Part shown: piece after piece, positions 1 to 3,455 of the stretch
Numbering within the stretch: the stretch's first letter is position 1
Layout: each line of letters opens with the position of its first letter
NCBI GenBank assembly: GCA_036351155.1
Contig: JAZBOO010000085.1
Location: 1 to 3,455 of the forward strand
Source of the DNA: Candidatus Krumholzibacteriia bacterium
GTDB taxonomy: Bacteria > Krumholzibacteriota > Krumholzibacteriia > LZORAL124-64-63
DNA: 3,455 nucleotides
Direction: 5' to 3'
Position numbers and translations under genes: made by a program
Notes under the pieces: generated by a model
Seen by the model: only the letters and a program-made list of their open reading frames with translations
Told to the model about the DNA's origin: nothing
Database searches by the model: none

Positions 1-568
1 CCACGGGCACCTTCAGATCAGTGGGAGCAAAATTGAAGATCCCGATAACGCCAGCTGCCACCAGCCGATCGGTGACGGCCTGGGCGTGCGCCGAGGGCAC
101 CGTCAGGATGGCGATCTTTATTTTTTCCCGCGTGATGGCCTCTTCCATTTCATCCATGTCCTGAACCGTCCGGCCCCGGAAATCCAGGCCGATCAGCTTG
201 GGGTTCACGTCAAAAATGCCCCGCACGGGAAAGCCCTGCAGTTCCAGGTTCTGGTAGTTGGCCAGGGCCTGACCCAGGTGACCCGCCCCCACGATGGCCG
301 TGGGCACCGGTTCGGCGATGCCGATGATCTTTTCCAGGGCCGGGACCAGTTTATCGACCTGGTAGGGACGGCCAGGACGGCTGAAGCCGCCAAAATAATG
401 GAAATCGTGCCGCAACTGGCTGGCCTTGATGTCCAGGGATTCGGCGAGCTGGCGGGAGGAAACGTCCTCCACCCCGATGGCCTGCAACAACTTCAACTTT
501 TCCAGATACAGGGGAAGCCTGAGGATCGTGGCGTCGGGGACATCGTGACATTTGCGAATTTTCTTCAC
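1..568 (-). CDS. rex: Redox-sensing transcriptional repressor Rex (3' end truncated by window edge)
   Basis: Manual translation from GTG at 568-566, open to the edge: MKKIRKCHDVPDATILRLPLYLEKLKLLQAIGVEDVSSRQLAESLDIKASQLRHDFHYFGGFSRPGRPYQVDKLVPALEKIIGIAEPVPTAIVGAGHLGQALANYQNLELQGFPVRGIFDVNPKLIGLDFRGRTVQDMDEMEEAITREKIKIAILTVPSAHAQAVTDRLVAAGVIGIFNFAPTDLKVPV. Rex hallmarks: N-terminal P-x-AT-x-x-RLP-x-Y, SS-x-x-LA, winged helix R-x-D-x-x-YFG, Rossmann GAGxLG-x-AL-x-x-Y, FD-x-x-P, IAILTVP...AQ and GI-x-NFAP. GAGGAG RBS 6 nt upstream. Confidence 0.95.
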   Translation of the reverse strand, partial: MKKIRKCHDVPDATILRLPLYLEKLKLLQAIGVEDVSSRQLAESLDIKASQLRHDFHYFGGFSRPGRPYQVDKLVPALEKIIGIAEPVPTAIVGAGHLGQALANYQNLELQGFPVRGIFDVNPKLIGLDFRGRTVQDMDEMEEAITREKIKIAILTVPSAHAQAVTDRLVAAGVIGIFNFAPTDLKVPV

Positions 569-574
569 CTGAGG

Positions 575-580
575 CTCCTC
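575..580 (-). promoter_or_regulatory. Shine-Dalgarno site of rex
   Basis: ctcctc on + reads GAGGAG on -, 6 nt before the GTG at 568. Confidence 0.85.
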
Positions 581-583
581 TTG

Positions 584-601
584 CTGTTATTTCAATAACA
601 A
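584..601. promoter_or_regulatory. Putative Rex operator (box 1)
   Basis: CTGTTATTTCAATAACAA contains the perfect inverted repeat TGTTATT-TC-AATAACA (585-600). The 18-bp geometry matches the Rex consensus TTGTGAA-N4-TTCACAA, with TGTTA/TAACA in place of TGTGA/TCACA. It lies just upstream of the rex RBS. Confidence 0.65.
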
Positions 602-624
602 TATTTCAATTCAAGGGGCAAATC

Positions 625-642
625 TTGTTAGTTTTTTACCAG
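625..642. promoter_or_regulatory. Putative Rex operator (box 2)
   Basis: TTGTTAGTTTTTTACCAG (minus strand CTGGTA-AAAAAC-TAACAA) has the same 6-N6-6 geometry as box 1 with one arm mismatch to it. It overlaps the predicted rex transcription start near 640. Confidence 0.5.
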
Positions 643-646
643 CTTC

Positions 647-675
647 AGATTAGTGGCACCTGTTAATTTCGTCAA
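647..675 (-). promoter_or_regulatory. sigma70-type promoter driving rex
   Basis: Minus strand: -35 TTGACG (675-670), 17-nt spacer, -10 TAATCT (652-647, conserved T-A...T positions). Confidence 0.6.
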
Positions 676-794
676 GGGTCCTTGTCGGGTATTTCTGGAG
701 GTTTGCCCCGCTGAAAACTATTTTTCGGCGGTGCCCTCTTCACCAGATCGTCGCACCGGATCCCGGCTTGCCGGAAAACCCGAGAGATACCGAC

Positions 795-2720
795 ATGGAC
801 AATGCCTTCACGCTCAAGGATCCCTGGCTTCTGCAACCACTCCCGATGTTCGGCGACCTGGACGACGCCGGCTACGCCGAACTGGGCTTCATGGTGGGCC
901 TGGAAGTTCATCAGCAGCTCCTGACCAGGCGCAAGCTGTTCTGCCGCTGTCCGGCCGGCCAGTACAACAAAGAGGATCACCAGGCGGAGGTGCTGCGCCA
1001 CATGCGGCCCACCCTGTCGGAAATGGGCGAGTACGACGGCACGGCTTTGATGGAATTCAAGACTCGTAAAAACATTATCTATCTTCTGAACAACCAGACC
1101 GTGTGCACCTACGAGATGGACGATGCGCCCCCCTTCGAGATCGACGATGAGGCCCTGGACCGCAGCATTGCCGTGACCATGATGCTGGGCTGCAACGTGG
1201 TGGGCGAGGTGCACATCACCCGCAAGCAGTACCTGGACGGCAGCATCCCCACGGGATTCCAGCGCACCGCCATCATCGGCACCGACGGGGATATTCCCTA
1301 CCGCGACCGGCAGATCCATATCAGGCAAGTCAGCATCGAGGAGGACTCGTGCCGCGAGGTCAGCGACGAGGGGCACGTGCGCACCTACCTGACCGACCGG
1401 CTGGGCATGCCCCTGATCGAGACGGTGACCGATCCCGATATGAAAACCCCGCTCGAGGCCATGGAAGTGGGGCAGGTCATCCGCCATCTGGCCCGCAGCA
1501 GCGGACTGGTGCGGACCGGCAGCGGCGCCGGCCGGCAGGATGTCAACGTGTCGGTCACCGGCGGCACCCGCATCGAGATCAAGGGCGTCAACAGCCTGCG
1601 CGCCATTCCCCGTCTGGTGCACAACGAGGCCCTGCGCCAGCGCACCCTGGTGGGCATTCAGGGTGAGTTGAAAAGGCGCGGCATCACCCCGGAAACCATT
1701 GCCGACAAGGGATTCGATGTGACCTCCATTGTGCGGGGCACCGAGTGCCGGTTCATCGCCAAGGCCCTGGAAAAAGGAGCCACCGCTCTGGCCATTCCCC
1801 TGCCCGGCTTCCAGGGATTGCTGCAGCTGCAAACCCAGCCGCGCACCAGTTTCCTCAAGGAGTTCAGCGACCGCATCCGGGTCATCGCCTGTATCGACTA
1901 CCTGCCCAACCTGGCGCTGTCCACCCAGGACGTGCCCACCCTCAGCAGCGGCGAATGGGACCGCGTGATCAGGACCTGTGGGGTGGCGGCGGATGTGCCG
2001 GTCATCGTGGTCTGGGGGCGGCAGCTGGACGTGGAAACCGCCGTTCGCGAGGTGGCCATCCGAGCCCGCGAGGCCTGTGAAGGTGTGCCCCAGGAAACGC
2101 GACAGGCGCTCGAGGACGGAACCAACGGATTCGAGCGCATCCTCCCCGGAGCCGACCGCATGTACCCGGACACCGACCTGCCCCCCATCGCCCTGGACGA
2201 TGAACGGGTGGAGGGCATCCGCAGCACGTTGCCGCCCGCTCCCTGGGTACGACGTGACCGGGCCCTCGAAATGGGCGTGGGCCCGGACCTGGCCGAGCGT
2301 CTGGGCCGCCATCGCGCCTGGGATCTTTTTCAGCATCTGGCGCCGAAGCTGGAACCGGATGCACATCTCACAGCTCATCAGCTGGCCAGTTTGCTGCTGG
2401 ATCGCTCGGCCCCTCGGCCTGCCAGCTTGAAAGTGGCGGGCTCATGGTGGGAAGATGCCATGACCCGCCTGGTCCGGGGCGAAATCCTGCCGGAGTCGGT
2501 GTGGCTGAGCGAAGACGAGTTGCTGCCCCGGCTGGACGAAGAGACCGCCCGCCGCCTGGTGGACAAGGCCCTGGCTGTGCTGCCCGAGGGGCTGCCACGG
2601 GACCCGCAGAAAAGAATCAACTGCCTGATGCCGCTGGCCATGATCGAAATCAGAGGCCGATTTGCCGGCCGAACCGTGCGCACCTGGCTGGAAGCCCGGG
2701 TCGAGGAGGAGCAATCGTGA
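795..2720 (+). CDS. gatE: Glutamyl-tRNA(Gln) amidotransferase subunit E
   Basis: ORF 768..2720; the ATG at 795, preceded by GAGAGA (782-787), is preferred over TTG 768 and gives 641 aa. GatE-type motifs: YAELGFMVGLEVHQQL, KLFCRCP, RPTLSEMGEYD, DGSIPTGFQRT, IEEDSCR, DRLGMPLIE-x-x-T-x-PD, RQDVNVS, RIEIKGV, the AspRS-like insertion (DVT...LAIPLPGFQGLL...QP), GVPQETR, PGADRMYPDTDLPP and a C-terminal LM-x-x-AM-x-x-IRGR-x-x-G tail. The insertion domain and the adjacent gatD distinguish it from GatB. Confidence 0.95.
   Translation: MDNAFTLKDPWLLQPLPMFGDLDDAGYAELGFMVGLEVHQQLLTRRKLFCRCPAGQYNKEDHQAEVLRHMRPTLSEMGEYDGTALMEFKTRKNIIYLLNNQTVCTYEMDDAPPFEIDDEALDRSIAVTMMLGCNVVGEVHITRKQYLDGSIPTGFQRTAIIGTDGDIPYRDRQIHIRQVSIEEDSCREVSDEGHVRTYLTDRLGMPLIETVTDPDMKTPLEAMEVGQVIRHLARSSGLVRTGSGAGRQDVNVSVTGGTRIEIKGVNSLRAIPRLVHNEALRQRTLVGIQGELKRRGITPETIADKGFDVTSIVRGTECRFIAKALEKGATALAIPLPGFQGLLQLQTQPRTSFLKEFSDRIRVIACIDYLPNLALSTQDVPTLSSGEWDRVIRTCGVAADVPVIVVWGRQLDVETAVREVAIRAREACEGVPQETRQALEDGTNGFERILPGADRMYPDTDLPPIALDDERVEGIRSTLPPAPWVRRDRALEMGVGPDLAERLGRHRAWDLFQHLAPKLEPDAHLTAHQLASLLLDRSAPRPASLKVAGSWWEDAMTRLVRGEILPESVWLSEDELLPRLDEETARRLVDKALAVLPEGLPRDPQKRINCLMPLAMIEIRGRFAGRTVRTWLEARVEEEQS
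2703..2711 (+). promoter_or_regulatory. Shine-Dalgarno site of gatD, inside the gatE 3' end
   Basis: GAGGAGGAG ends 5 nt before GTG 2717. The gatD start overlaps the gatE stop (GTGA, 2717-2720). Confidence 0.85.
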
Positions 2721-3455
2721 GCGCCCCCAACGAAGACTTCAAGGGCTACCGCACGCCCACGCTGGAACTCTTGCAAAGGGAAGAGTCTCCGGTCTGGAGC
2801 CAGGTCACCCTGCACACCACCCGCGGCGAATTTTCCGGCCTGATCCTGCCCCGCAGCGAGACCGCCGACGCCCTGCACATCGTCCTGAAGCTGGACACCG
2901 GCTACAACATCGGCATTCGCCACGACACGGTCGAGCGCATCAGCGTGCACGGCCGCAAGGTGGCCAACTACCAGATCCCCGAGAAGGCCTTTCCCTTCGA
3001 TCCGGTCAAACCCCGGGTCAAGCTGTTCGGCACCGGGGGGACCATCGCCAGCCGTCTGGATTACCGGACCGGTGCGGTGATTCCCGCCTTCAGCCCCGGC
3101 GAGCTCTATGGATCTGTGCCCGAGCTGGCCGACATCTGCAACATGGAAACCGAGAAGCTTTACGGCGTGTTCAGCGAGAACATGGGCCCCGAACAGTGGA
3201 TGGGTACGGCGCGCGCCATCGCCGCCGAGATCGAGAAGGGTGTGGCCGGCATCGTGGTCGGGCACGGAACCGACACCATGCACCACACCGCGGCCGCCCT
3301 GAGCTTCATGGTGCAGGATTCCCCCGTGCCCATCGTCATGGTGGGCAGCCAGCGCAGCAGCGACCGCCCCAGCAGCGACGCGGCCATCAACCTGATCAAC
3401 TCGACCCGCACCGCGGCGACCAGCGATATCGCCGAGGTCATGGTCTGCATGTTCG
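2717..3455 (+). CDS. gatD: Glutamyl-tRNA(Gln) amidotransferase subunit D (3' end truncated by window edge)
   Basis: Manual translation, open to the edge: MSAPNEDFKGYRTPTLELLQREESPVWSQVTLHTTRGEFSGLILPRSETADALHIVLKLDTGYNIGIRHDTVERISVHGRKVANYQIPEKAFPFDPVKPRVKLFGTGGTIASRLDYRTGAVIPAFSPGELYGSVPELADICNMETEKLYGVFSENMGPEQWMGTARAIAAEIEKGVAGIVVGHGTDTMHHTAAALSFMVQDSPVPIVMVGSQRSSDRPSSDAAINLINSTRTAATSDIAEVMVCMF. It has the GatD N-terminal domain (G-x-I-L-P-R...IVLKLDTGYNIG), asparaginase catalytic motifs TGGTIAS and HGTDTM, and the GatD signatures SRLDYRTGAV, SENM and GSQRSSDRPSSDA. Confidence 0.96.
   Translation, partial: MSAPNEDFKGYRTPTLELLQREESPVWSQVTLHTTRGEFSGLILPRSETADALHIVLKLDTGYNIGIRHDTVERISVHGRKVANYQIPEKAFPFDPVKPRVKLFGTGGTIASRLDYRTGAVIPAFSPGELYGSVPELADICNMETEKLYGVFSENMGPEQWMGTARAIAAEIEKGVAGIVVGHGTDTMHHTAAALSFMVQDSPVPIVMVGSQRSSDRPSSDAAINLINSTRTAATSDIAEVMVCMF

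Follow-up and report, generated by a model that had tools for sequence, protein, structure and literature searches.

A gatE-gatD operon in a Krumholzibacteriota genome: a bacterial GatDE retained beside glutaminyl-tRNA synthetase

What would a bacterium that has glutaminyl-tRNA synthetase (GlnRS) do with GatDE, the Glu-tRNAGln amidotransferase that reviews place in archaea? The question is raised by a contig of a Candidatus Krumholzibacteriia bacterium (contig C85, JAZBOO010000085.1, assembly GCA_036351155.1), the entire 3455-base length of which was analysed and is called ‘the window’ here, and which carries three genes: rex, gatE, and gatD. The greater part of a native, bacterial gatE-gatD operon of a Krumholzibacteriota genome lies in the window. 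On balance, we regard its product as probably a working but accessory Glu-tRNAGln amidotransferase beside GlnRS, a view that we hold with limited assurance.

Reviews up to 2022 describe GatDE as found only in archaea, and scenarios of early evolution have been built on that distribution (PMC9499178, PMC8007984, PMC2330236); the enzyme is ‘an archaeal signature protein’ in a 2008 review (PMC2330236) and occurs ‘only in archaea’ in a 2021 review (PMC8007984). The initial annotation of the window, which was made from its letters alone, likewise called GatDE archaea-specific, which agrees with the reviews but not with the databases, where bacterial copies are common and labelled as such. A protein search returned at least 8000 proteins at E <= 1e-20, the best 120 of which are 64-100% identical to the window's GatE. 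Those that a source names are entered as ‘Glu-tRNA(Gln) amidotransferase subunit GatE’, with Krumholzibacteria, Planctomycetota, or simply ‘bacterium’ as the host. Additionally, a scan of species genomes confirmed relatives in at least 572 of them (at least 572 stretches among the best 600 candidates), and GatE clusters in the ESM Atlas are bacterial as well as archaeal. The same annotation had allowed that similar entries might exist in public records, which understated the case. The window's GatDE is one unremarkable case within a very large bacterial group that databases already annotate, so this single locus is not a discovery; rather, the review statement ‘archaea-only’ lags behind database annotation. 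Among the papers listed since 2013 that name GatDE, none is on bacterial GatDE by its title or abstract, and no literature linking GatDE with Ignavibacteri* was found.

The gatE gene is a single open frame from ATG 795 to TGA 2720. Its product scores above the cut-offs of the NCBIfam GatE models (NF003107, 478.7 bits, cut-off 456; TIGR00134, 407 bits, cut-off 319.55), and every GatB model falls far under its own cut-off (the best, 144.1 bits vs 338). Residues H39, E182, and E209 align gap-free with His15, Glu157, and Glu184 of the Methanothermobacter thermautotrophicus enzyme, which are the Mg2+ ligands of the kinase site and the mutation of which kills both kinase and transamidase activity (PMC2330236); none of the three varies among the 36 bacterial GatE sequences that were aligned. 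The Pfam profile PF02934 covers GatE residues 33-472 though it comprises only 277 positions, and the alignment with Pyrococcus abyssi 1ZQ1_C runs continuously over 6-510, through the insertion domain. Judged by these alignments, the insertion domain of the cradle domain is retained in GatE.

The gatD gene starts with GTG at 2717, overlapping the gatE stop codon (GTGA), and GAGGAGGAG stands at 2703-2711; read in this way, gatE and gatD are a translationally coupled pair. The fragment on C85 reaches 265.5 bits (profile positions 8-220) and 260.4-260.8 bits (positions 2-208) on GatD models, above the 186.6 bits that asparaginase models give it. A gatD disrupted downstream of the window would have spoken against a functional enzyme, but the gene carries on at C34:2-700 of the same genome (profile positions 196-403, 247.1 bits). 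Because it is split over two contigs, its halves (260.8 bits at 2-208 and 247.1 bits at 196-403) each fall under the whole-protein cut-off of 324 when scored singly; the full-length gatD genes of 28 relatives score 400-523 bits. The domains are PF18195 (GatD_N; 46.6 bits) and PF00710 (162.2 bits), with PF17763 (113.1 bits) on C34. In the alignment with 2D6F_A, T109 pairs with position 101 and T185-D186 with positions 177-178, and the Lys of the ...VRKMH... motif is located on C34. A Thr nucleophile and a Thr-Lys-Asp triad are features of GatD (PMC2330236), and by alignment both are kept. These results bear out the initial annotation in having read an uninterrupted gatE, the first 246 codons of a gatD with its catalytic motifs, and proteins that are true GatE and GatD rather than GatB and a plain asparaginase.

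Four known systems help to place the enzyme. Archaeal GatDE (M. thermautotrophicus 2D6F; P. abyssi 1ZQ1) has the same two subunits and gatE/gatD pairing, the same GatD_N and asparaginase domains with their Thr / Thr-Asp / Lys residues, and the same GatE cradle domain with His/Glu/Glu Mg2+ ligands and insertion domain, followed by a C-terminal tail. The window's GatDE differs in its bacterial host, in an identity of ~36-41% to one archaeal GatE (of Natrinema), in a GatE tail that Pfam does not recognize, in a tRNAGln with U1-A72, and in a GluRS (glutamyl-tRNA synthetase) that is of bacterial type with a discriminating-type Arg; it also coexists with GlnRS, whereas archaea are without it (PMC9499178). 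Nothing essential separates it from the annotated bacterial GatDE enzymes (NF003107 / NF003217), of which it is one, although its group has rex divergently upstream (18 loci) and a more diverged tail, and GatCAB is lost in the host species. Bacterial GatCAB shares the three-step chemistry, and GatB is a paralogue of GatE, but the glutaminase of GatCAB is an amidase (GatA with GatC) instead of the asparaginase-fold GatD, and GatB is without the insertion domain; in bacterial tRNAGln and tRNAAsn, GatCAB recognizes U1-A72 and how large the D-loop is (PMC2330236), and it too is kept beside GlnRS and AsnRS (asparaginyl-tRNA synthetase) in some bacteria (PMC4206432). Finally, type I L-asparaginase (AnsA) has the fold and catalytic residues of GatD, from which GatD is set apart by the extra N-terminal GatD_N domain, higher GatD-model scores, and translational coupling to gatE.

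Does the pair belong to the bacterium at all? An archaeal or chimeric contig wrongly binned could give the same picture, and C85 is short (3455 bases) and comes from a metagenome-assembled genome of 4.19 Mb in 405 contigs (97.6% complete, 2.87% contamination). However, the order of rex and divergent gatE-gatD recurs in 18 loci, several of which lie on contigs between 280 kb and 2.8 Mb long; the gatE-gatD pair is present in a congener assembled in five contigs (G003); the guanine-plus-cytosine (GC) content of C85 (63.0%) equals that of the genome (mean 62.1 +/- 2.0%); and window positions 1-1644, which include the rex-gatE junction, are bridged unbroken, at ~93% identity, by a contig of 4638 bases that was assembled from wastewater in an unrelated metagenome study. 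The closest relatives, among the matches listed, are all labelled bacterial. The contig is bacterial (Krumholzibacteriota, within the Fibrobacterota-Chlorobiota-Bacteroidota (FCB) group) and not chimeric, as the initial annotation had supposed in placing the genes in a bacterial context, and the artefact is refuted for practical purposes. As for the break inside gatD, the end of C85 (window 3409-3455) and C34:1-47 agree in a run of 28 bases that is preceded by a patch of mismatches, and strain heterogeneity probably split the assembly there. In the likely source sample, the region is seen only as contigs of 150-500 bases at a depth of 2-5.

The pair has also been kept for long. GatD and/or GatE is present in 22 of the 24 other genomes of the window's family, including one congener in five contigs, and in 32 of 41 genomes of the class (the host genome included), and full matches in relatives have no internal stops. 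Among 80 related loci, gatD lies 3' of gatE in 70 (in 69 on the same strand). The ratio of nonsynonymous to synonymous substitution rates (dN/dS), calculated for pairs with dS close to saturation, is 0.10-0.22 for gatE (three of four pairs; the fourth is saturated), 0.06-0.11 for gatD (three pairs), and 0.05-0.07 for rex. Retention across family and class, synteny, the match in GC content, and low dN/dS (0.06-0.22 for gatE and gatD) together argue for long residence under purifying selection, in agreement with the earlier proposal of long residence rather than recent transfer. Hence, the genes are intact, coupled in an operon, vertically retained, and under purifying selection, with their catalytic residues kept. 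That GatDE is a relic, made redundant by GlnRS and now decaying, is in our view very improbable: redundancy with GlnRS, absence from two family members (G018 and G023), and a weakly conserved GatE tail would fit decay, but intact frames in host and relatives, dN/dS of 0.05-0.22, and a GatD that is 70-93% identical across phyla do not.

The phylogenetic placement is consistent with this history. Among the matches listed, the best species-genome relatives are Krumholzibacteriia/Krumholzibacteriota at 62-86% identity, followed at 43-60% by Latescibacterota, KSB1, Ignavibacteriota, Aminicenantes, Phycisphaerae, Bacteroidota, Cloacimonadota, and Myxococcota. In a quick tree built from 69 bacterial GatE sequences, the window falls in starred clades of rows labelled Krumholzibacteriota, and phylum labels cluster on this tree far more than chance would have it (17 changes, vs 28.4 on average after shuffling; none of 200 shuffles did as well). 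The archaeal outgroup was one GatE, from a 987-kb replicon of Natrinema thermotolerans, which is frameshifted and of which a 476-residue frame was used. FastTree places this single sequence outside 39 bacterial rows (support 68, with a long-branch warning), an IQ-TREE mixture model places it beside the Krumholzibacteria-like clade on an end branch of 5.15, and bacterial GatE monophyly is not rejected by an approximately unbiased test that rests on this one frameshifted sequence (p = 0.50). The Natrinema gatE (CP031304.1, 2902-4853) is not in the gene table of its record and reads in two frames, as a pseudogene or a sequencing error would. A plasmid search gave no bacterial plasmid with GatE; its matches were GatB and the Natrinema record.

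If GatDE is native and selected, is it needed? A profile search of the host genome contigs found GlnRS (707.8 bits, cut-off 425.8), AsnRS (653.6 bits), one GluRS, one bacterial AspRS (aspartyl-tRNA synthetase), and one LysRS (lysyl-tRNA synthetase). In the same search, GatB was not found, the only matches being gatE itself, and the best GatA-like match was an amidase of 173 bits vs a cut-off of 481. Since GatCAB was not found and GlnRS is present, GatDE would be a second route to Gln-tRNAGln beside GlnRS, and one that is not needed, instead of the third route that the initial annotation proposed. Across the class, GlnRS accompanies GatDE in 31 of 32 genomes, and the remaining one (G036) has GatB; GatB is present in 21 of the 32, and the 11 without it all have both GlnRS and AsnRS. 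To judge from these gene inventories, GatDE is never the sole route to Gln-tRNAGln in the class. From other phyla, 50 of 58 GatDE-bearing genomes, which come without completeness figures, were taken in: GlnRS is present in 46, GatB in 25, and neither in one. These counts are descriptive and not statistical because related genomes are not independent, but they indicate that bacterial GatDE is practically never the only route, being the only detectable one in at most one of 82 GatDE-bearing bacterial genomes (32 of the class and 50 of other phyla).

The loss of GatCAB from the host invites another explanation, namely that GatDE took over tRNA-dependent asparagine synthesis, as an Asp-tRNAAsn amidotransferase, in genomes that had lost GatCAB. 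GatB is present in six of seven congeners of the host, tRNAAsn has U1-A72 like tRNAGln, asnA was absent in the search of the host genome, and asnB was found there only as fragments at contig ends. Nevertheless, we consider this role improbable. One of the asnB fragments is of 171 bits; AsnRS is present in the host and in 40 of 41 class genomes; GatDE and GatB occur together in 21 of the 32 GatDE-bearing genomes and are thus not complementary; and GatE keeps the insertion domain, which clashes with AspRS in published modelling (PMC2330236). The residues of AspRS that mark discrimination do not separate GatCAB-bearing relatives from amidotransferase-free ones. This marker, taken from the Pseudomonas aeruginosa enzyme, is Leu/Met alike in the host and in both kinds of relatives and was set aside as uninformative.

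We return to the reading of GatDE as an accessory Glu-tRNAGln amidotransferase. By homology with the archaeal enzyme, whose mechanism has been described (PMC2330236), a GatD dimer of asparaginase fold would free ammonia from Gln or Asn, and GatE would bind the acceptor arm and D-loop of tRNAGln, use ATP/Mg2+ to phosphorylate the attached Glu at its gamma-carboxyl, and amidate the activated Glu to give Gln-tRNAGln. In this host, the enzyme would have to read a tRNAGln of bacterial type (U1-A72). GluRS discrimination is not known to be absolute, its sequence marker (discussed below) is weak, and a resident amidotransferase would convert any Glu-tRNAGln to the correct product. Glu-tRNAGln as the substrate and an accessory or back-up role are what we infer from these considerations.

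Several observations weigh against that reading, and the first concern where Glu-tRNAGln would come from. Arg358 of Thermus thermophilus (Tth) GluRS is a residue specific to discriminating GluRS, which behaves otherwise in Helicobacter pylori and is lineage-dependent (PMC3927822). The single GluRS of the host has Arg at the Tth Arg358 site (NRF vs PRF). The same LG(N/G)RFSSL motif is found in the GluRS proteins of G018 and G023, which are 62-68% identical to that of the host; GlnRS was detected in both of these genomes, which belong to the family of the host, and an amidotransferase in neither. Conversely, a non-Arg GluRS copy is present in seven of seven checked GlnRS-less genomes with a closed assembly or a completeness of 86% or more (G027, G032, G036, G037, G040, G066, and G074), some of which also have an Arg-type copy. 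As sequence patterns, G018 and G023 together with these GlnRS-less genomes support the Arg marker within the group. Two further genomes in which GlnRS was not detected (G064 and G084) have only an Arg-type GluRS; they are without a completeness figure, and one has only 1.9 Mb. One GluRS match per genome is usual, being seen in 20 of the 24 further family members and in 37 of the 50 genomes from other phyla. In the host genome, nothing stood out as a source of Glu-tRNAGln.

Other points on the same side concern recognition of the tRNA and the enzyme's surroundings. Archaeal GatDE reads A1-U72 (PMC2330236, PMC9499178) as well as the D-loop of tRNAGln, but both host tRNAGln genes and tRNAAsn have U1-A72 and not the archaeal A1-U72. 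The host tRNAGlu genes have G1 and longer D-loops, both with G1 opposite U72. The C-terminal tail of GatE, which is the D-loop reader in archaea, is the least conserved part of the protein in the lineage (34-56% mean identity over the last 160 residues vs 70-87% in the core), and residues 480-641 have no GatB_Yqey (PF02637) match even at E <= 1, whereas two Ignavibacteria-type GatE tails do match this profile (34.7 and 30.2 bits). NF003107 is nonetheless aligned to the window's GatE up to profile position 625 of 630, and M616 and G621 of the consensus C-terminal motif LMGxVMxxLRGR are invariant in the bacterial GatE alignment A2. None of the 80 loci has a tRNA-Gln gene less than 6 kb from gatE, and the literature searched gives no biochemical data on any bacterial GatDE. 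In sum, to go by its sequence GatDE looks fully functional and selected, although no supplier of the usual kind stands out for its substrate.

The absence of an evident Glu-tRNAGln source adds some weight to the alternative that the enzyme has been repurposed: it would not supply Gln-tRNAGln for translation but act on another acyl-tRNA or carboxylate substrate, or correct rare toxic Glu-tRNAGln in trans. We consider this unlikely, but it is a serious rival. It would account for GlnRS together with a single Arg-type GluRS in the host genome and genus, for the same pattern in other phyla (one GluRS match in 37 of 50 genomes, GlnRS in 46 of 50), for strong purifying selection on GatDE despite redundancy, for the diverged tRNA-reading tail of GatE, and for the two relatives without an amidotransferase (G018 and G023). 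On the other hand, all catalytic residues of kinase and glutaminase and the whole domain order are kept, and there is no sign of a new substrate, in the gene neighbourhood or elsewhere. Moreover, the GluRS marker is one residue and lineage-dependent (PMC3927822), and a redundant GatCAB beside GlnRS and AsnRS is known in other bacteria (PMC4206432). The initial annotation had named a repurposed glutamine-dependent amidotransferase as an option; it gains from the missing supplier and loses from the kept catalytic residues and the want of any sign of a new substrate.

As a tentative and rather doubtful generalization, GatDE that occurs together with GlnRS and a discriminating-type GluRS, in many bacteria of the FCB group and others, may be no supply route for Gln-tRNAGln at all and may be selected for another task. 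This task could be the clean-up of rare, mischarged Glu-tRNAGln, Asn-fuelled amidation when Gln is scarce, or action on a substrate not yet known. If this were true, an ‘archaeal signature’ enzyme would have a second, uncharacterized role in thousands of bacteria. As it stands, GatDE is nearly always found beside GlnRS and in the window's lineage also beside a discriminating-looking GluRS, so that the reason for keeping an indirect pathway becomes a concrete, testable question.

Some observations on synthetase and tRNA genes may be recorded here. Two GluRS genes occur in some GatDE-bearing class members (G036:C10 and G038); in G036, which is without GlnRS, one is of Arg type and one is not, and the Arg-type copy lies 45 kb from gatED on the same contig. 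At G000:C191:9128-12988, gltX is followed by tRNAGln(CUG) and tRNAGlu(CUC) within 2.3 kb. In several GatDE-bearing genomes of Ignavibacteriota type (G085:C22, G090:C1, G077:C1, G083:C62, and others), glnS and gltX are neighbours, <2.3 kb apart. Contig G000:C171 (L010:1165-2154) encodes, ~3 kb from asnS, a protein of 329 residues that is paralogous to the class II synthetase core and scores 86 bits as AsnRS and 75.6 bits as archaeal-type asparagine synthetase A, both far under the cut-offs.

The features of the window are listed in Table 1.

Table 1. Genes and candidate signals in the 3455-base window.
Feature	Coordinates	Strand	Basis
rex, for the redox-sensing repressor; 189 codons, truncated 3' at the contig end	2..568	-	NF003995 205.9 bits (cut-off 126); Pfam Put_DNA-bind_N + CoA_binding
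Palindrome TGTTATTTCAATAACA, similar to a Rex box, within the 5' leader of rex	585..600		exact match to TGTKA-N6-TMACA
Second Rex-box-like site TGTTAGTTTTTTACCA, one mismatch, directly downstream of the -10-like hexamer of rex	626..641		motif search, alignment
-35/-10-like pair for rex: TTGACG (675->670), 17 nt, TAATCT (652->647)	647..675	-	by eye
Conserved blocks CTGGAGGTTTG (695-705) and CTATTTTTCGG (718-728), candidate gatE promoter/leader	695..728	+	alignment A1, 10 loci
gatE, complete, 641 aa/codons, kinase/amidotransferase subunit	795..2720	+	open reading frame, NCBIfam, Pfam, aligned residues
Shine-Dalgarno-like GAGGAGGAG and GTGA stop/start overlap	2703..2720	+	sequence inspection
gatD, first 246 codons: GatD_N and N-terminal asparaginase domain with T109, T185, D186; goes on at C34:2-700	2717..3455	+	NCBIfam, Pfam, alignment

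The gene adjoining gatE is rex, as first annotated, and it lies divergently upstream of gatE in 18 of the 80 related loci, all of them in the Krumholzibacteria-like group. The region between the two genes contains two matches to the Rex box, the consensus of which we take to be TGTKA-N6-TMACA, vs 0.10 expected in the window (inverted repeats of the TGTTA-N6-TAACA type). These sites are kept in place in relatives, and in 10 aligned loci the columns TGTTAC..TTGACA are nearly invariant. The sigma70-like -35/-10 promoter that the initial annotation reported here was not reproduced: a consensus scan of 540-830 gave 0 sigma-70-type promoters and 0 terminators, and the pair picked by eye scores under the threshold of that scan and, being on the minus strand, would serve rex and not gatE. 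In its -35-like hexamer, CGTCAA is invariant in the 10 loci, and the second hexamer is TATTGT in relatives. From their arrangement, the Rex boxes and the minus-strand pair likely serve autoregulation of rex.

Better candidates for a gatE promoter or leader are the two conserved blocks 70-100 bases before the gatE start, where relatives carry CTATCTTTG; the second block (CTATTTTTCGG) resembles the Bacteroidota-type TAnnTTTG box. Given that the Rex-box-like sites lie ~55 bases upstream of these blocks, control of gatED by Rex would be possible. A 47.7-kb contig from an estuary metagenome (run X6, ~90% identical) matches window positions 4-679 and 688-3455 and has 11,585 other letters between 679 and 688, that is, an insertion between rex and gatE; with ~11.6 kb between the two genes on this contig, the rex-gatE linkage is not obligatory. 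A search of the window with Rfam gave no family match, only one at chance level (E = 0.19) inside gatE.

Neighbour-gene clustering over the 80 loci, which is noisy because of spurious high-GC frames, gave no partner common to phyla except gatD; the neighbours of gatED include PhoH/PIN, FabH-like, SSF transporter, and hexapeptide transferase genes. On C34, gatD is followed by genes for an M1 peptidase, a hexapeptide transferase, and a pyridoxal phosphate enzyme. The peptidase gene lies 3' of gatD in six related loci, and locus L026 also has a hexapeptide-repeat gene further downstream.

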